Source of the DNA: Spirochaetia bacterium
GTDB lineage: Bacteria > Spirochaetota > Spirochaetia > SZUA-6 > Bin103
NCBI GenBank assembly: GCA_965203905.1
Contig: CBDBDQ010000005.1
Coordinates: 1,792,001-1,856,000, forward strand
Reading direction: 5' to 3'
DNA length: 64,000 bases
Position 1 is the first letter of the stretch, and each line of letters starts with the position of its first letter. A program made the translations under genes and the position numbers. Below, in pieces: positions 2,197 through 62,338 of the stretch. The notes below the pieces were generated by a model. That model worked only from the letters and a program-made list of their open reading frames with translations. It did not search any database and was not told the DNA's origin.

Positions 2197-3303
2197 TTAT
2201 ACGTTCAAGAAGAATTCCGGGATCGAGACGATGTACTTCAGGTTGAACAGCCAGCGCGTATACATCTTGATCGGCAGCGCCAATCCCATCAGCAGCAACA
2301 CGATGAAGAAGCTGTAACGCACCACGCCGAGGCGTTGGAACAGCCGCTTGAAGACGGTCTGCGCCAGCAGCCCCGGGAGGATGGCGAAGTACCCCAGAAT
2401 CAACAGTATCCCGAACAGCTCGCGTACCAGGATGTTCTCCGGCAGCCCGGAACGCAGCAGGAAGATGTAGACGTATTCCGAGAGGTTGACGTTGTTCAGC
2501 ACCTCCCGCTTGTTCGGGTCCCAGAATTCGAATGGTCCATAGAAATTCCAGTTGGGCCCGCGAAAGAAGGTGCCCACCAGGATCAGGAAGATCCACATCA
2601 CCACGAAGCCGAACAGGAAGATGCTGATCGACTTCATGCGCGGCTTGTAGCTGTAGAAGCCCTGGCCGCCGGGGTTGATGTCCATGTAGGGGATGGCGAC
2701 CAGGCCGACGATGATCAGCGTCGGCAGCACCACGCCTGCCAGCCACGGGTCGTAGTAGACCAGCATCTCCTGCAGGCCGAGGAAATACCACGGCGCCTTG
2801 GACGGGTTGGGCGAGACCGTGGGGTTGGCCGGCTCCTCCAGCGGCGCCTTGAGGAACAGCGACCAGACGATCATCAGCGCCATCGACAGGATCAGGGAGA
2901 TGAACTCCACGTATACCAGGTCGGGCCACACCAGCACCTTCTCGTTGTCCAGCGCCTCCTGCGGCGGCTCGCCCTTCTCGGCGCGCAGGTCGTTCTCACG
3001 CGCCTGCTTCATCGAGTACCAGAGGAAGAACGGCACCAGGAACAACAGCGCCGTGATCGGGATGTTGTCCGGCTTGAACACGATGAGGCGAAAGTTGGCG
3101 TCGGTGATGCCCCACAGGAAGAAGATCGCCAGCAATGCGAAGAACACGATGCCGCCGGCCGGGGTCCACAGCAGGTCCAGCTTCAGGCGCCGGTTGAGCT
3201 GGTACAGCCTGCCGCCGGGCGGAAAGATGAAGAAGAACCCGACGATGAAGATCGAGAACAGGATGGCCGGGTTGGAGACCCAGTTGAAGAATTGCTTGAG
3301 CAT
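2197..3303 (-). CDS. Cytochrome b C-terminal (subunit IV/PetD-like) polytopic membrane subunit with extra helices
   Basis: VWPDLVYVE and LEEPANPTVSPNPSKAPWYFLGLQEML (PEWY-equivalent) motifs; many TM segments; directly follows cytochrome b6. Confidence 0.85.
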   Translation of the reverse strand: MLKQFFNWVSNPAILFSIFIVGFFFIFPPGGRLYQLNRRLKLDLLWTPAGGIVFFALLAIFFLWGITDANFRLIVFKPDNIPITALLFLVPFFLWYSMKQARENDLRAEKGEPPQEALDNEKVLVWPDLVYVEFISLILSMALMIVWSLFLKAPLEEPANPTVSPNPSKAPWYFLGLQEMLVYYDPWLAGVVLPTLIIVGLVAIPYMDINPGGQGFYSYKPRMKSISIFLFGFVVMWIFLILVGTFFRGPNWNFYGPFEFWDPNKREVLNNVNLSEYVYIFLLRSGLPENILVRELFGILLILGYFAILPGLLAQTVFKRLFQRLGVVRYSFFIVLLLMGLALPIKMYTRWLFNLKYIVSIPEFFLNV

Positions 3304-3312
3304 TTCTTGCCT

Positions 3313-4179
<867 letters not shown>

Positions 4180-40462: not shown

Positions 40463-40648
40463 ACGGTGTTCCTGTCGCCCCGCAAGCCGTGCGGCGCGGA
40501 GGCAACGGTGCAGGCCAACAATGACGGACTGCCCACAGTGGGCACACCAGCGCAGAGTGGATCCCGGCCGGGAACGCGCGCAAGGGTTAGGCCGGCCACG
40601 AGTTAGTCCGTACGGTCAGCCATCGGTCCCGCCGATGAACGCTGTTTG

Positions 40649-40722
40649 TGGAGGCGACGGGAATCGAACCCACGACCTCGTGAATGCCATTCACGCGCTC
40701 TAGCCAACTGAGCTACGCCCCC
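40649..40722 (-). tRNA. tRNA-Ala(GGC)
   Basis: GGGGGCGTAGCTCAGTTGGCTAGAGCGCGTGAATGGCATTCACGAGGTCGTGGGTTCGATTCCCGTCGCCTCCA; G3:U70 identity pair; CCA not encoded. Confidence 0.97.
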
Positions 40723-40787: not shown

Positions 40788-42916
40788 CCAGGACCATCGG
40801 ACCATCCCTGCTGAACGACGTCTGAATCCCGTGTGCGGCCGAGCGGCCGTGATGGCCCCCGGCGCCTACCAGATCGCCGCACACCCGCAACGCCGGTTTC
40901 CGCCGCTGCATTGCTGCCACGCCGGCGCCGCGGTGCAGGATTCGCAGGATTCTGCGAAAAAGTGCCAAAAAAACGCGCTGAGCACTTGACGGGTTTGGCG
41001 CTGCTCGTGACGGCCTCCTGCCGCACGTTCCGGCCCCTCCGACCCTTCGAACATCCCGCCACGCCCTCCAGGACCGTCAGCACCCGCCAGCGCCGGCCTA
41101 AGCCCTTCCCGGTGCCCGTCCCGGGACTTGCAGAAACCGGGCATTTCTCAACCATGATTATATTTACGCCATGACTGCCGCGACCGCTACCGGCTTCTCC
41201 TCCTCGCTTTCCGGGCTCCCCGACCAGGTGCTGCTGGCGCATACCAGGTCCCTCGTCCTGCACGAGCAGGCGCTGCAGCTCGCCGTCCTCGACCACCTGC
41301 GCGAGATCCATGCGCGTCACCTCCACCTGCGCCTCGGGTTCTCCAGCCTGTTCGACTACGCCGTCCGCGAGCTGGGCTACAGCGAGGGTGCCGCTTGGCG
41401 TCGCATAAAGGCGATGCGCCTGTGCTCCGAGACCGCCGGGACACGCGAGCGGCTGCAGGACGGCTCACTCTCCCTGAGCGCGGCGGCGCAGTTGCAGAAC
41501 ACCTTCGATCTCCTGCAGCGCACGGCCACCGCCGCCGCGGACCCCGGCTCGGCACCCGCGGCAGCGGAGCTGCTGCCGGGCGCCACGGGGACGCCGCCCG
41601 AGGCGGGGGCTTCCGCGGCCGAGGTCGCGGCGCCACCGAGCCCGGTGCAGGCGCGACCGGTGCCGGCGCTGGACGCGGCGCAGCGGCAGGAGCTGGTGGC
41701 GCAGGCGAGCGGCAAGAGCACCCGCGAGGTGAAGCAGTTGTTGGCCGGGGTGGCTCCCGAGCTGGCGCGGCCGGCCGATCGCATGCGGGCGCTGGGCGAC
41801 GGCCGCTGGGAGCTGAAGGCAGTGATCGACTCTGCCTGCCAGCGCGGGATCGAGCAGCTACGGGCACTGCTGTCGCACGTGGACCCGCACCTGACGCTGG
41901 GGCAGCTCGTGGAGCGGCTGGTGCAGGACGGCCTGAAGCGCTACGACCCGGGGCGACCGCCGCGCGGGCGCAGAGGTGGGCGCCGGAAGGCAAGCTCGGG
42001 CCAGGCGCCGGAGCCGACGGCGCAGCAAGGGCCGGCAGGCGGGGCGGCTTCGCTGGCGAAGTGGGGCGTGCAAGAGCAACCCGGAGTGCCACCGACGCCG
42101 GCGGGCACGAGCGCCGGTGGCAGCACCCCGGCGCCGGCAGCGCTGTCCGCAGCGGAACCCGCGCGCGGGATTTGCGACGCCGGCACCTCCGTGGTGGCAG
42201 CGCTGTCCGCGCCGCCGTCGGGGCGCGAGACTTGCGGCGGCATCATCTCGGTGAGTGCCAAGCCAGCGGCGGCGGCGCCCGGCACCGCTGTTTCGGCAGC
42301 GAAGTCGGTGGCAGATAGTGGGTCCCACGCTACCGTACCGACGCCACGGCCGACGCCGCCGGCAGACCAGAGCATGCCGCCCGCGCGGGCAGCGGCGGAT
42401 CGCGGTCGCCACGCTCCTTCGCCAGCGAAGCGGACAGGGGCCGCGCAGCGGGCAGGGGCGGCGCAGCGGGCAGGAGCGGCGCCGCCGGCAGGAGCGCAGC
42501 TCGATGGCCGTTCGCGCACGCAGGCGGCGCCAGCCGGCCCGTCCGCAGGCAGCGCGCAGCCGGCCCACCGGCCGCGTCGATCCCGGTACATTCCGGCACC
42601 AGTGCGGCGCGAGGTGTGGCGCCGCGACGGCGGCTGCTGCAGTTACGTCGATCCGCGCAGCGGGCGGCGCTGTGGGTCCCGCTTTCTCCTGGAGTTCGAC
42701 CACATCGTTCCCTACGCGCTCGGCGGCGGCGCCGAGCCGGGGAACTTGAGGCTGCATTGTGCTGCTCACCACCGCTTCCGGCATCGGGAGCACGGATCGC
42801 CGCCAGACGGGGCCACGTGATCGGCGCGCGCCGGGGTGCGAGTTGCGCCGTTGGGCGTCGGTCCGAGGGCAGCGGGAGCAACGATTTGCAGCCGGCTTGT
42901 CGCGTAGCGGGGGATA
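40788..42916 (+). mobile_element. HNH-encoding repeated element, copy 1 (right end truncated)
   Basis: Homologous end-to-end with 58902-61034 in inverted orientation. Left end CCAGGACCATC(GGACCATC)CC; homology stops at GGGATA 42916. Confidence 0.75.
41171..42820 (+). CDS. DUF222-like N-terminal domain + low-complexity linker + C-terminal HNH endonuclease
   Basis: LGFSSLFDYAVRELGYSEGAAWRRI N-terminal domain; RDGGCCSY...C...DHIVP...GN...CAAHH HNH/Zn motif. Confidence 0.88.
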   Translation: MTAATATGFSSSLSGLPDQVLLAHTRSLVLHEQALQLAVLDHLREIHARHLHLRLGFSSLFDYAVRELGYSEGAAWRRIKAMRLCSETAGTRERLQDGSLSLSAAAQLQNTFDLLQRTATAAADPGSAPAAAELLPGATGTPPEAGASAAEVAAPPSPVQARPVPALDAAQRQELVAQASGKSTREVKQLLAGVAPELARPADRMRALGDGRWELKAVIDSACQRGIEQLRALLSHVDPHLTLGQLVERLVQDGLKRYDPGRPPRGRRGGRRKASSGQAPEPTAQQGPAGGAASLAKWGVQEQPGVPPTPAGTSAGGSTPAPAALSAAEPARGICDAGTSVVAALSAPPSGRETCGGIISVSAKPAAAAPGTAVSAAKSVADSGSHATVPTPRPTPPADQSMPPARAAADRGRHAPSPAKRTGAAQRAGAAQRAGAAPPAGAQLDGRSRTQAAPAGPSAGSAQPAHRPRRSRYIPAPVRREVWRRDGGCCSYVDPRSGRRCGSRFLLEFDHIVPYALGGGAEPGNLRLHCAAHHRFRHREHGSPPDGAT

Positions 42917-43093
42917 GTTGACACCGGCCGCGCGGTGCTCCCGGTCAAGCAGCGCCTCAAGCTCTACCCGTCGGCGATCCGCGACGGCTGGATCTTCGTG
43001 GATCTGCAGCGTCCGGAACCGTGGCCGGTGGTGTCGCTCCTGGCCCGACCGCGCCGTTCGTACGGCCGCCGGCGGGCCCACCGGTCGCCGTAG
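42917..43093 (+). pseudogene. 3' fragment of a Rieske-type ferredoxin gene
   Basis: VDTGRAVLPVKQRLKLYPSAIRDGWIFVDL resembles a Rieske ferredoxin C-terminus; no start codon or Cys/His boxes; precedes an amidohydrolase. Confidence 0.55.
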
Positions 43094-58876: not shown

Positions 58877-58901
58877 AGCCGCCTCGCACCAAGGGTTGCT
58901 G

Positions 58902-61034
58902 CCAGGATTATCCCACGTTGCGCGACAAGCCGGCTGCAAGTCGTTGCTCCCGCTGCCATCGGACCGACACCCGAACGCCCAACTCGCCCCGCGGCGAGCG
59001 CCGATCACGTGGCCCCGTCTGGCGGCGGCGCGTACTCCCGATGCCGGAAGCGGTGGTGGGCTCGACAGCGCAGGCGCAAGTTGCCGGGCTCCGCACCGCC
59101 GCCGAGGGCGAAGGGAACGATGTGGTCGAGCTCCAGCAGGAAGCGGGAGCCGCAGCGCCGCCCGCTGTGCGGATCGACGTAACTGCAGCGGCCGCCGTCG
59201 CGGCGCCACACCTCGCGCCGCACTGCTGCCGGAATGTACCGGGATCGACGCGCCCGGTGGGCCGGCTGCGGGCTGCCACGGGACGGGCCGGCTGCCGCCG
59301 CCTGCGGCCGCGAATGGCCATCGAGCTGCACCGCTCCTGCCCGCTTCGCCGCTCCGGCCCGCTTCGCTGGCGAAGGAGCGCTGCGACCACGATCCGCCGC
59401 TGCCGTCGCGGTCGGCATGGTCTGGTCTACCGGCGGCGTCGGTACGGAGGCGCGGGACCCGCAACCAGCCACCAACTTCGCCGCCGAAGCAGCGGTGCCG
59501 GGCGCCGCCGCCGCTGGCTTGGCACTCACCGGGGTGATGCTGCCGCCAGTCTCGCGCCCCGACGGCGGCGCGGGCAGCGCTGCCACCGCCGAGGTGCCGG
59601 CGCCGCCAATCCCGCGCGCGGGCTCCTCTGCGGACAGCGCTGCCGGCGCCGGGGTGCCGGCGCTCGTGCCCTCCGGCGTCGGCGGCACTCCGGGTTGCTC
59701 TTGCGCGTCCCGCTTCGCCGGCGAAGTCGCCTCGCCCGCCGGCCCTTCCTGCGCCTTCGGCTCCGGCGCCTGGCCCGCGCTTGTCTCCCGGCGCCCACCT
59801 CTGCGCCCGCGCGGCGACCGCCCCGGGTCGTAGCGCTGCAGGCCATCCTGGACCAGCCGCTCCACGAGCTGCCCCAGCGTCAGGTGCGGGTCCACGTGCG
59901 ACAGCAGTGCCCGTAGCTGCTCGATCCCACCCTGACAGGCAGAGTCGATCGCCACCTTCAGCTCCCAGCGCTCGTCGCCCAGCGCCCGCATGCGATCGGC
60001 CGGGCGCGCCAGCTCGGGAGCCACCCCGGCCAACAACTGCTTCACCTCGCGGGTGCTCTTGCCGCTCGCCTGCGCCACCAGCTCCTGCCGCTGCGCCGCG
60101 TCCAGCGCCGGCACCGGTCGCGCGGGCGCCGCTGCCGCGGTCCCCGAAGCCCCCGCCTCCGGCGTCGTCCCCGTGCCGCCCGGCAGCAGCTCCGGTGCCG
60201 CGGGTGCCTCGCCGGGGTCCGCGGCGGCGGTCGCGGTGCGCTGCAGGAGATCGAAGGTGTTCTGCAACTGCGCTGCGGCGCTCAGGGTGAGCGAGCCGTC
60301 CTGCAGCCGCTCGCGTGTTCCGTCGGTATCGGAGCACAGGCGCATCGCCTTTATGCGGCGCCAGGCGGCACCCTCGCTGTAGCCCAACTCGCGCACCGCG
60401 TAGTCGAACAGGCTGGAGAACCCGAGGCGCAGGTGGAGGTGGCGGGCGTGGATCTCGCGCAGGTGGTCGAGGACGGCGAGCTGCAGCGCCTGCTCGTGCA
60501 GGACGAGGGACCTGGTATGCGCCAGCAGCACCTGGTCGGGGAGCCAGGAGAGAGAGGAGGAGAAGCCGGGAGCGGTCGCGGTAGCCACAGTAGCCATGGC
60601 GTAAATATAATCATGGTTGAGAAATGACCGGTTTCGGCAAGTCCCGGGACGGGCACCGGGAAGGGCTCAGGCCGGCGCTGGCGGGGTGCTGACGGTCCTG
60701 GAGGGCGTGGCGGGATGTTCGAAGGGTCGGAGGGGCCGGAAGGTGCGGCAGGAGGCCGTCATAAGCAGCGCCAAACCCGTCAAGTGCTCAGCGAACTTTT
60801 TTTGGCACTTTTTCGCAGAATCCGGCGAATCCTGCACTGCGGCGCTGGCGTGGCAGCAATGCATCGGCGGAGACCGGCGTTGCGCATGGGCGGCGACACG
60901 CCCATTCCTGGACAGATGGTACAGCGAACGATCCACGCACCTTGAAGGCGGCGGCGGCCTGGCAGGCGTGGGGCCATCACCGCAGCTCGGCCACGCACGG
61001 GATGCAGACGTCCGTCAGCATGGGATGGCCCTGG
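58902..61034 (-). mobile_element. HNH-encoding element, copy 2, with terminal inverted repeats and 7-bp target duplication
   Basis: Ends CCAGGATTATCCCA (58902-58915) and TGGGATGGCCCTGG (61021-61034) are 11/14 inverted. GTTGCTG directly flanks both ends (58895-58901, 61035-61041). Confidence 0.8.
59005..60597 (-). CDS. DUF222-like + HNH endonuclease protein (paralogue of 41171-42820)
   Basis: Same N-terminal domain; RDGGRCSY...DHIVP...GN...CRAHH. Confidence 0.88.
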   Translation of the reverse strand: MATVATATAPGFSSSLSWLPDQVLLAHTRSLVLHEQALQLAVLDHLREIHARHLHLRLGFSSLFDYAVRELGYSEGAAWRRIKAMRLCSDTDGTRERLQDGSLTLSAAAQLQNTFDLLQRTATAAADPGEAPAAPELLPGGTGTTPEAGASGTAAAAPARPVPALDAAQRQELVAQASGKSTREVKQLLAGVAPELARPADRMRALGDERWELKVAIDSACQGGIEQLRALLSHVDPHLTLGQLVERLVQDGLQRYDPGRSPRGRRGGRRETSAGQAPEPKAQEGPAGEATSPAKRDAQEQPGVPPTPEGTSAGTPAPAALSAEEPARGIGGAGTSAVAALPAPPSGRETGGSITPVSAKPAAAAPGTAASAAKLVAGCGSRASVPTPPVDQTMPTATAAADRGRSAPSPAKRAGAAKRAGAVQLDGHSRPQAAAAGPSRGSPQPAHRARRSRYIPAAVRREVWRRDGGRCSYVDPHSGRRCGSRFLLELDHIVPFALGGGAEPGNLRLRCRAHHRFRHREYAPPPDGAT

Positions 61035-61336
61035 GTTGCTGGCTGTGCTCGTTGTCCAAATGTGATGTTCTTGTACGATACTTGAGAAACTGGTGGTTGC
61101 GTTCATGCAGGACACGCTCTCAGTTTCTGAGGTGCGCGAGAAGCTCGCCGAGGTCACCGGTCTGCTCGACGCTCTCGATGCGCTCGCAGACTATCGCGCG
61201 AACGGCGGCGTCGATCTGGAGGCCCTCAAGAAGAACTCGGTCTTTGATTCACCGAATCGTCGAGGTTGCCTTGTTCTCGGTGACGGCGACGTCGTACAGG
61301 TGGTCCACTGCTTGCTGTGCAGTGATCATGCGTGGC

Positions 61337-62338
61337 TCACGCCGTGGCAGGCAGGCCGTTGTGCGTGCCCACCTCGCCCGTGGACACTTGGGCCGTGCTC
61401 AGGAGACCGCCGCTCTCGCGGCGCAGGCGGTCGAGTCCGACTGCGAAGTACACGGGGTCGACCTCGATCCCGATGCTGTTTCTGCCGCAGGCGGCGGCAG
61501 CCACCTGGGAAGTAGCGGTGCCGTTGAACGGATCGAGCACCGTGTCCCCGACGAAGCTGAACATGCGGATCAGTCGGTCCGCCAGGGCGACCGGAAAGGG
61601 AGCCGGGTGGTCGCGGGTCGACTCACCCGGGATGTCGGCCCAGATCTGTCGAAAGAACCGCTTGAACGAGGACTCCGACAGCAGGCTGAGTATCCGTGCA
61701 GCAAGGTCGGGTTTGCGGTAGCCGCCTCCCTTCCGCTGCATCAGGATGAATTCGATGTCGTTCTTGATTACGGCGTTGGGCTCGTACGGCTTGCCCAGGA
61801 ATCCACCGGCGCCGCGCTTCATCTCGTAGGTCGCGTTGGCGATCTTGCTCCATATGATCGGCGCCAGGTTGTCGAAGCCGATCTCCCGGCAGTGCTCCTG
61901 GATCGAAGCGTGCAACGGCACCACCGTGTGCTTGCCGCGGTTCCTGCGCCGCGCCAGACAAACATCGCCGACAACGCAAATGAGCCGTCCCCCCGGCACC
62001 AGCGCCGCGTGGCACATGCGCCACACCTGGTCCAGCTGGCTGAAAAACTCCTCATAGTCCTCGATCCACCCCAACTGGCCGTCGGCCCGGCGGTACTCCT
62101 TGAGGATCCAGTACGGTGGGGACGTGACCACGAGGTGAACCGAGCCGGCGGGCAGCGCCGCCAGCCGCGCGTCTCCGAGCAGCAACCGATGTCGGGTGGG
62201 GACTTCGACCACGGCTGCCTCAATGGATGCTATCGCTGACCGGCTCTTCGCCAGCCGTGGCAGATCACGCGACGGGTCCGCAAGATCGCGGAGTGGCTCA
62301 GGGACGAGCGTACCGAGCACGGACTGCCTCACGTGCAC
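61337..62338 (-). CDS. Site-specific N4-C/N6-A DNA methyltransferase (beta class)
   Basis: TSPPY precedes HPAPFP and VLDPFNGT. Confidence 0.92.
   Translation of the reverse strand: MHVRQSVLGTLVPEPLRDLADPSRDLPRLAKSRSAIASIEAAVVEVPTRHRLLLGDARLAALPAGSVHLVVTSPPYWILKEYRRADGQLGWIEDYEEFFSQLDQVWRMCHAALVPGGRLICVVGDVCLARRRNRGKHTVVPLHASIQEHCREIGFDNLAPIIWSKIANATYEMKRGAGGFLGKPYEPNAVIKNDIEFILMQRKGGGYRKPDLAARILSLLSESSFKRFFRQIWADIPGESTRDHPAPFPVALADRLIRMFSFVGDTVLDPFNGTATSQVAAAACGRNSIGIEVDPVYFAVGLDRLRRESGGLLSTAQVSTGEVGTHNGLPATA

Follow-up and report, generated by a model that had tools for sequence, protein, structure and literature searches.

MIC231 of Bacillus cereus is an example of a mobile insertion cassette (MIC). 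In the part of PMC3129680 that deals with them, MICs are described as elements derived from insertion sequences (ISs) that combine terminal repeats with passenger genes, lack a transposase and are activated by a cognate transposase. A candidate element of this kind, a cassette that encodes a single HNH nuclease, is described here from a window of 64,000 nucleotides (the whole stretch of DNA analysed; positions 1,792,001–1,856,000 of contig CBDBDQ010000005.1, assembly GCA_965203905.1) of an uncultured Spirochaetia bacterium. The genome of the window (G000) is a 7.99-Mb assembly in five contigs (C1–C5) with 66% G+C. The window holds two copies of the cassette, copies 1 and 2, and the family to which both belong is termed family A.

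Three other groups of described elements invite comparison. IscB/HEARO elements belong to the IS200/IS605 family, which is not known to have terminal inverted repeats (TIRs) or target duplications, and encode a nuclease with HNH and RuvC domains together with an upstream guide RNA. ISs of the ISAs1 family, according to ISfinder, have ends in CAGGG and direct repeats (DRs) of 8–10 bp. Table 3 of PMC6305408 gives one of them, ISArsp11, an inverted repeat of CAGGGCTGATGCAAAGTCG, with repeats beginning CAGGG, and a 10-bp DR. The mycobacterial REP13E12/DUF222-HNH genes are mentioned as repeats in a passage of PMC10589994.

Termini and target duplications of the cassette

Copy 2 occupies positions 58903–61033 of the window (2,131 bp; its open reading frame, ORF, lies on the minus strand), with boundaries common to the genomic copies. 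It is flanked by the strandless target-site duplication GGTTGCTGC on the left (58894–58902) and its partner GGTTGCTGG on the right (61034–61042), which are identical at 8/9 positions. The first-pass annotation had reported an exact GTTGCTG direct repeat here; that heptamer is indeed contained in the flanks, though the full duplication is 9 bp long and imperfect. The TIR on the ORF-3′ side (58903–58920, plus strand) reads CAGGATTATCCCACGTTG, against a family consensus of CAGGACTATCCCACGCTR in a table of 42 such ends, and that on the ORF-5′ side (61016–61033, minus strand; table of 24 such ends) reads CAGGGCCATCCCATGCTG as its reverse complement. An earlier count of 14 matches in 19 positions between the two ends was correct, except that the outermost C/G belongs to the duplicated target.

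Family A comprises 53 loci in G000 at ≥79.5% identity (blastn), 51 of them on the main contig, and 39 of the 53 span at least 1,900 of 2,133 nt. A second family, family B, has about 13 loci with 72–78% nucleotide and 45–50% protein identity. The conserved end consensus of family A is CAGGRCYATCCCAYGCTG; 42 ORF-3′ ends share (N)CAGGACTATCCCACGCTR and 24 ORF-5′ ends share CAGCATGGGATGGCCCTG(N). Homology ends at identical bases in dozens of copies, and the flanks are otherwise unrelated. The pattern CAGGNNNATCCCAYGCT occurs 41 times in G000, and its reversed control was found 0 times in all 25 genomes searched.

Both ends could be located by motif in 28 pairs. At a fixed offset, the flanking 9-mers match at 9/9 positions in seven pairs, at 8/9 in three and at 7/9 in one, and three further pairs (C5:414611, 2120197 and 7575718) have exact 8-mers after a one-base shift, as judged by eye. 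In about ten of the 28 no duplication is visible, which is to be expected after recombination between copies; two different family A copies are joined in contig C3. Three copies (C5:1235227, 1242775 and 1247357) have one common left flank, so that some local copies were made by segmental duplication. A genome-wide table of termini and direct repeats, proposed by the first-pass annotation as a check, thus returned common ends and target duplications, and the latter are 8–10 bp long in family A. The element is therefore a genuine transposed unit that has TIRs and target duplications of 8–10 bp.

The window locus was also compared with five congeners, using copy 2 with 1.2 kb on each side as the query. 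Three of the five (G005, G001 and G007) lack the element between the same flanking genes; the two flanks lie 136, 187 and 545 bp apart there, respectively, compared with ~2.3–2.4 kb in the window. In a MAFFT alignment of the window locus with those of G001 and G005, the intergenic DNA was too diverged to place the gap or to show a single GGTTGCTG. A search for public sequencing runs found 24, mostly labelled as sponge or coral metagenomes, and four were compared; in these, which gave short contigs only, no joint skipping 58903–61033 was seen, and reads covered the element tens of times as deeply as its flanks, as expected of a repeat. Mobility is supported by the common termini, the target duplications and the absence of the element in three of the five congeners.

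Contigs C1–C3 are 95–99.9% identical variants of C5 regions. In contig C3, the family A copies at C5:2.968 Mb and C5:1.961 Mb are joined to each other, which suggests a strain-variant rearrangement by recombination between cassettes. Among contigs C1–C4, all variants of C5 regions, no presence/absence allele was found for any family A copy. Mutual divergence between family A cassettes is 8–11%, in a star-like pattern.

An ISAs1-family insertion sequence with the same ends

The ends of the cassette recur on a complete IS of the congener G001. This IS is 2,164 bp long, with ends CAAGGCGATCCCATGCTT and CAGGGCGATCCCATGCTG, and has 9-bp duplications at the three loci examined (TCCCAACAT, GCTCGGCGG(C) and GCCGCCGGC); a fourth copy is indicated by identical hits, and two compared copies are 99.86% identical. 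One end motif lies ~740 bp upstream of a DDE_Tnp_1_assoc match. The 606-codon frame of the IS matches the whole NCBIfam model NF033564, 'ISAs1 family transposase', at 148 bits (cut-off 70), and also has Pfam matches to DDE_Tnp_1_assoc and DDE_Tnp_1. Genome G004 holds one intact ISAs1-type IS of the same kind. There is therefore, within the genus of G000, an ISAs1-family IS that is intact and recently active and has the same ends and 9-bp duplications as the cassettes.

The family A ends CAGGGCCATCCCATGCTG and CAGGACTATCCCACGCTR match the CAGGGCGATCCCATGCTG and CAAGGCGATCCCATGCTT ends of this IS, and the ORF-5′ TIR of copy 2 equals the CAGGGCGATCCCATGCTG end at 17/18 bases (counted by eye). The ends of family A start with CAGG(G), and its target duplications are of the 8–10-bp length that is typical of the ISAs1 family. 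Beyond CAGGG, the repeats are dissimilar to those of ISArsp11. Unlike members of that family, the window element has no DDE transposase and so does not belong to it; it does not encode its own transposase, as an autonomous IS would, and carries one passenger gene, as a MIC does.

At its N-terminus, the transposase of the G001 IS (locus L098, 667–2484, minus strand) has a DruA-like domain (PF14236, E 7.8e-24), which is also present in ORF1 of a 2.9-kb IS of G000.

The same ends enclose several other kinds of DNA. In the congener G008, ORF-less MITEs (miniature inverted-repeat transposable elements) of 138–142 bp have these ends and 9-bp duplications, with 65 pattern hits in the genome; the ORF-3′ end type of copy 2 is borne by its 141-bp MITEs. 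A protein search found no HNH homologue in G008, an 88% complete genome. Genomes G004 and G006 have 1.4–1.5-kb cassettes with the same ends, and G000 has one such end; Pfam (E 0.1) and NCBIfam (E 0.001) searches with the encoded protein gave nothing convincing, and it is assigned to no family. In G004, furthermore, 2.2-kb cassettes carry a true DUF222+HNH protein (PF02720, E 3e-21; two were examined, and a third end pair is equally spaced).

A fourth kind of cargo is found in G000 itself. The only gene of the 1.29-kb cassette at C5:5515052–5516341 (locus L043, 1053–2342), which has ISAs1-type ends, is of the YhgA/Rpn-like 'Transposase_31' type (PF04754, E 1e-15). The 9-mers that flank this cassette are equal at 6/9 positions, all three differences being transitions, and related copies lie at C5:3261700 and C5:6957520. 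The IS, the MITEs, these cassettes and family A have only their terminal 17–23 nt in common; to judge from this comparison, the common part would be the binding site of the transposase and nothing else. How the cargo is oriented with respect to the two end types varies between cargo types, as expected of independent captures.

Taken with the absence of a transposase gene, these ends and duplications make it probable that the cassette is a non-autonomous, MIC-like element with ISAs1-family ends and an HNH nuclease as cargo. Two imperfect 18-bp TIRs of the ISAs1 family would enclose the passenger gene and its upstream region, and both ends would be bound by a DDE transposase of the ISAs1 family that an intact IS provides in trans. 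The transposase would then insert the cassette at staggered cuts, whose repair would give rise to the 8–10-bp target duplications. We infer that an ISAs1-family transposase moved these cassettes. The first-pass annotation had offered a non-autonomous element with HNH cargo as the second of two readings, and it is this one that is supported, the ends and duplications being those of an ISAs1-family IS and no transposase gene being present.

Like MICs, the cassette has the TIRs of a known IS family, the duplication length of that family, one passenger and no transposase, and ORF-less MITEs with the same ends occur in a congener. It differs from MICs in its ~53 loci within one genome, in having a nuclease passenger under purifying selection, and in ends that carry at least four cargos (two HNH proteins, one PD-(D/E)xK nuclease of the YhgA/Rpn-like kind and one protein without a family), while the cognate IS is not intact in G000. 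The kind of element is a known one; what is new is the high copy number, the fact that nuclease cargo recurs on ends from two IS families, and the constraint on the cargo.

The HNH protein and its upstream region

The sole conserved ORF of copy 2 (59005–60597, minus strand) encodes 530 amino acids, arranged as an N-terminal domain (residues 1–125), a linker, a middle domain (residues 166–262), an Ala/Pro-rich linker (residues 263–455) and a C-terminal HNH nuclease domain (residues 456–525; 59023–59232, minus strand) with Cys/His zinc-site residues. Pfam searches with both window proteins returned only HNH, at 20.4 and 21.6 bits (cut-off 21.4); the weaker match, just below the cut-off, is that of copy 2 (E 5.8e-4). 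As PF01844 (HNH) matches 16/17 relatives (best E 3.4e-7), the C-terminal HNH domain read from the sequence at first pass is borne out. The DUF222-like label given to the N-terminal domain at the same time is not supported by profile searches: PF02720 matches 0/17 relatives at E up to 1.

Alignment with hhalign against five true DUF222-HNH proteins covered only the HNH domain and the preceding R-x-IP-x-x-(V/L)RR motif, with a probability of 93–95%. The resemblance to REP13E12/DUF222-HNH genes therefore lies in a multi-copy gene with a helical N-terminal region and a C-terminal HNH domain, and in this aligned segment; PF02720 is lacking, however, and the alignment is confined to the HNH part. 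The IS-type ends and duplications seen here are a further difference, since they are not known to us as described for REP13E12 from a limited literature search.

Transposase and recombinase families of the DDE, DEDD, HUH, serine and tyrosine types were sought in the cassette protein, and none was found (Pfam E 0.01, NCBIfam E 1), in agreement with the earlier remark that the sole ORF has no recombinase motif. In NCBIfam, only the IscB model NF040563 was matched, at 16–17 bits (cut-off 175) and over the HNH domain alone. As in IscB/HEARO elements, an HNH gene follows a long conserved non-coding region in a mobile element, and the nuclease could be accessory to transposition rather than a transposase. 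In contrast with IscB (17 bits against 175 for NF040563), the cassette protein has no RuvC domain and the cassette no Rfam match, and it has terminal inverted repeats and target duplications.

The untranslated region 5′ of the ORF spans 418 nt (60598–61015, minus strand). In a conservation profile over 37 copies, its positions 60685–60784 lie above neutral conservation, with a mean pairwise identity of 0.91. A search of the whole element against Rfam, on both strands and at E up to 1, gave no match, which leaves the presence of a known RNA (HEARO, for instance) upstream of the ORF unsupported. TATATT stands directly 5′ of the ATG of the copy 2 ORF; a promoter scan made no call on the ORF strand.

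HNH genes between other ends

Homologous HNH genes also occur between the ends of a second IS family. Family B copies, 95–99% identical, lie in 2.2–2.5-kb composites of G000 that are bounded by GGGTGCATTCC...GGAATGCACCC and have 9-bp duplications (C5:3696707–3699174, locus L047, and five similar loci). Each composite combines one end of an ISKra4-family IS with the HNH module and with a MITE-like deletion derivative of that IS, 228 bp long. The composite ends are those of an IS of G000 at C5:2122476–2124038 (locus L048), which encodes a 468-aa ISKra4-family transposase (239.6 bits; cut-off 205). Given their identity, the family B composites were amplified recently.

Similarly, the 12 HNH loci examined in genome G010 carry the ends of that genome's own IS, with ~8-bp duplications. 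The transposase of the G010 IS is present in eight near-identical copies and has 54% identity to its ISKra4-family counterpart in G000.

Fragments of an MmeI-like gene (MmeI_TRD, E 1.3e-8) lie beside or within several of the G010 HNH elements. The gene lies at 2961–4142 of locus L071 on the minus strand, and fragments are present in loci L063 and L069, the L069 fragment being within the terminal repeat.

Evidence weighing against mobilisation in trans

Four sets of results weigh against an account in which an ISAs1-family transposase moves the cassette in trans and the HNH gene is cargo. The first is the condition of the mobiliser in G000 itself. PF13808, the N-terminal family of ISAs1, matches 0/11 candidates in this genome, and no intact ISAs1-family transposase was found there alongside the cassettes. 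Searches of G000 with the G001 IS (tblastn and blastn) recovered only a 409-bp end relic of 85% identity (C5:4213322–4213730), a solo end (C5:6024971) and a DDE fragment (48% amino acid identity). Mobilisation in trans must accordingly have occurred at an earlier time or in a strain outside the sample. With only relics of ISAs1-type ISs left, the 53 cassette loci of G000 are probably stranded, and their star-like divergence fits an old burst followed by present immobility.

The second concerns the ends. The G001 IS has two CA(A/G)GGCG-type ends, whereas the cassettes have one such end and one CAGGACT end, and no intact IS with exactly this pair of end types was found. The third is the occurrence of HNH genes with no IS-type ends. 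One related record of 4.14 Mb has 15 HNH loci, mostly without recognisable ends or duplications, and at these 15 loci a conserved TTGACT-N17-TATACT stands directly before the start codon; likewise, about eight true DUF222-HNH paralogues of G000 lack ISAs1-type ends. The gene module thus also spreads, or is maintained, where no IS shell can be recognised.

The fourth is selection on the gene. The family A ORF is intact from end to end in 36 copies. The three folded domains have ratios of non-synonymous to synonymous substitution rates (dN/dS) of 0.18, 0.23 and 0.22 (HNH), and the two linkers have ratios of 1.2 and 0.94; between nearest-neighbour copies of this star-like family, dN/dS is 0.25 in the domains against 0.93 in the linkers. 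Recognisable duplication pairs show about 10 mismatches in ~150 sites, a rough count that is biased downwards, which suggests that at least half of each terminal branch post-dates insertion. Together with the dN/dS values, these mismatches indicate that the constraint seems to act on resident copies.

Such constraint is not expected of passive cargo moved in trans. Since its folded domains are kept under purifying selection, the HNH gene is not inert cargo and serves the cassette or the host. Possible causes of the constraint are gene conversion, selection at the level of the host, or a role of the nuclease in the spread or retention of the cassette.

Other candidates in G000 were considered and set aside. 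The positions C5:4213730 and C5:6024971, taken as possible further cassette-like ends, are relics of an ISAs1-type IS, and no repeated unit starts there. As mobilisers of family A, three ISs were rejected because their ends differ: the 2.9-kb two-ORF IS (GGGTGCGGCTCTTTT), a 2,592-bp IS (GTAAGTATTCGGTCTAC, with 7-bp duplications) and the ISKra4-family IS (GGGTGCATTCC). The 2,592-bp IS has six identical copies, among them C5:7577415–7580006 and C5:4668269–4670860, and sits inside two different family A cassettes; it has one ORF with a DruA-like N-terminal region.

A role for the nuclease and alternative explanations

An extension of the MIC-like account is that the nuclease is a working part of a two-component selfish system and raises the copy number or retention of the cassette, for instance through cleavage of empty or donor sites, the repair of which would bring the element back. 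Such cutting by TnpB and IscB has been reported to restore IS200/IS605 elements. Stand-alone nuclease genes (family A and family B HNH, true DUF222-HNH and YhgA/Rpn-like), together with the cargo protein of no family, would on this proposal have repeatedly joined the bare ends of DDE ISs of two families, ISAs1 and ISKra4. If true, it would explain the purifying selection on the 36 copies and the recombinase-less spread of the DUF222-HNH/REP13E12 and Transposase_31 families. At present it is a tentative proposal, with the odds clearly against it. The purifying selection on dozens of resident nuclease copies does make a functional partnership between nuclease and cassette directly testable.

It is improbable, though less so than the alternatives that follow, that the module of promoter and HNH gene spreads by homing-type invasion, copying itself by cleavage and repair into existing IS-derived shells, with the TIRs and duplications recording older MITE insertions instead of movement of the cassette as a whole. 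HNH and PD-(D/E)xK are folds of known homing endonucleases, the module is found in three settings (ISAs1-type ends, ISKra4-type ends and bare), and constraint on the nuclease persists after insertion. Furthermore, there is no empty shell in G000, where each pattern hit ends a 1.3-kb or 2.1-kb element. Against such invasion, the cassettes and the G008 MITEs have only the 17–23 terminal bases in common, which leaves no internal shell to offer a homing site or homology for repair. The untranslated regions next to the ends diverge as the linkers do (0.77–0.89 pairwise identity), with no younger core seen between them, and the differing orientation of cargo by cargo type points to independent captures instead. 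Nor do the loci resemble those of a free-standing HNH homing gene, with one conserved target and no duplication: the flanks and the 9-bp duplications differ at every locus.

Very unlikely is an autonomous transposon, in which the HNH protein itself recognises the TIRs, cuts donor and target and moves the element, as in the first reading of the first-pass annotation. Its attraction is that the HNH gene is the sole ORF of the element, that 36 intact copies are under purifying selection as a cis-acting transposase would be, and that ~53 loci exist in G000, where an intact cognate DDE transposase is missing. Yet the same 17–23-nt ends and 9-bp duplications are found on ISAs1-family ISs, on MITEs and on cassettes with three unrelated proteins, and HNH homologues lie in ISKra4-family ends (G010 and family B) or have no ends at all, so that the protein family is not tied to one kind of end. 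To our knowledge, HNH nucleases hydrolyse DNA and none performs strand transfer. The first-pass annotation had itself named termini belonging to a canonical DDE IS as grounds for giving this reading up; since the termini bound the ISAs1-family DDE IS of G001 as well as MITEs and cassettes of other nucleases, an HNH-driven transposon does not survive this test.

That the copies are segmental duplications or a dispersed gene family whose ends are similar by chance, as the three copies with a common left flank might suggest, can be dismissed for practical purposes, given that dozens of copies with otherwise unrelated flanks lose their homology at identical bases, that 7/28 end pairs have 9/9 flanking 9-mers, that the end pattern occurs 41 times against 0 for its reversed control, and that three congeners lack the element between the same genes.

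A tempting candidate for an HNH transposase is thereby removed and replaced by an account in terms of the ISAs1 family that can be checked. This bears on the old question of why 'putative transposase' genes of the DUF222-HNH (REP13E12) and YhgA/Rpn types exist in multiple copies. Both occur as single-gene cargo between IS ends with duplications in this lineage of uncultured bacteria, and at least part of their spread is thus hitch-hiking on DDE transposases.

Copy 1 and neighbouring features

Copy 1 lies in the opposite orientation (plus strand) and ends at 42919; its 5′ boundary is ambiguous, at 40789 or 40798, and both of its termini are mutated, as seen from alignment and comparison of the ends. 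The first-pass annotation had described two inverted copies homologous beyond their ORFs. A MAFFT alignment bears this out, with 88% mean column identity over the flanked stretches; a repeat search gave arms of 86–96%, and the homology runs past the ORFs by ~420 nt upstream and ~100 nt downstream. The ORF of copy 1 (41171–42820, plus strand) is intact and encodes 549 amino acids. A small internal duplication, CAGGACCATC GGACCATCCC-TGCTG, is present at its ORF-5′ end, and its ORF-3′ end reads GATAGT TGAC where the family consensus has GATAGT CCTG, the last four bases differing. No target duplication was found at the flanks of copy 1.

A tRNA-Ala (GGC) gene is located at 40648–40722 on the minus strand, with 64–75 bp between it and the damaged end of copy 1. 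It is the 5′ side of the tRNA gene that is turned towards the cassette, which so does not occupy a 3′-end site of the integrase type; no link between the tRNA gene and the element is evident.

To the right of copy 2, window positions 61035–61257, between the cassette and the conserved right flank, are specific to G000, and homology to G005, G007 and the variant contigs of the public runs starts at 61258 in all cases. Beyond it, a 333-aa ORF (61337–62338, minus strand) contains TSPPYW, which we take to be a motif of a putative DNA methyltransferase. Elsewhere in G000, a ~160-bp repeat at C5:6027464–6027625 (locus L050, 2565–2726) has more than 10 genomic copies of 88–95% identity and is possibly another MITE.

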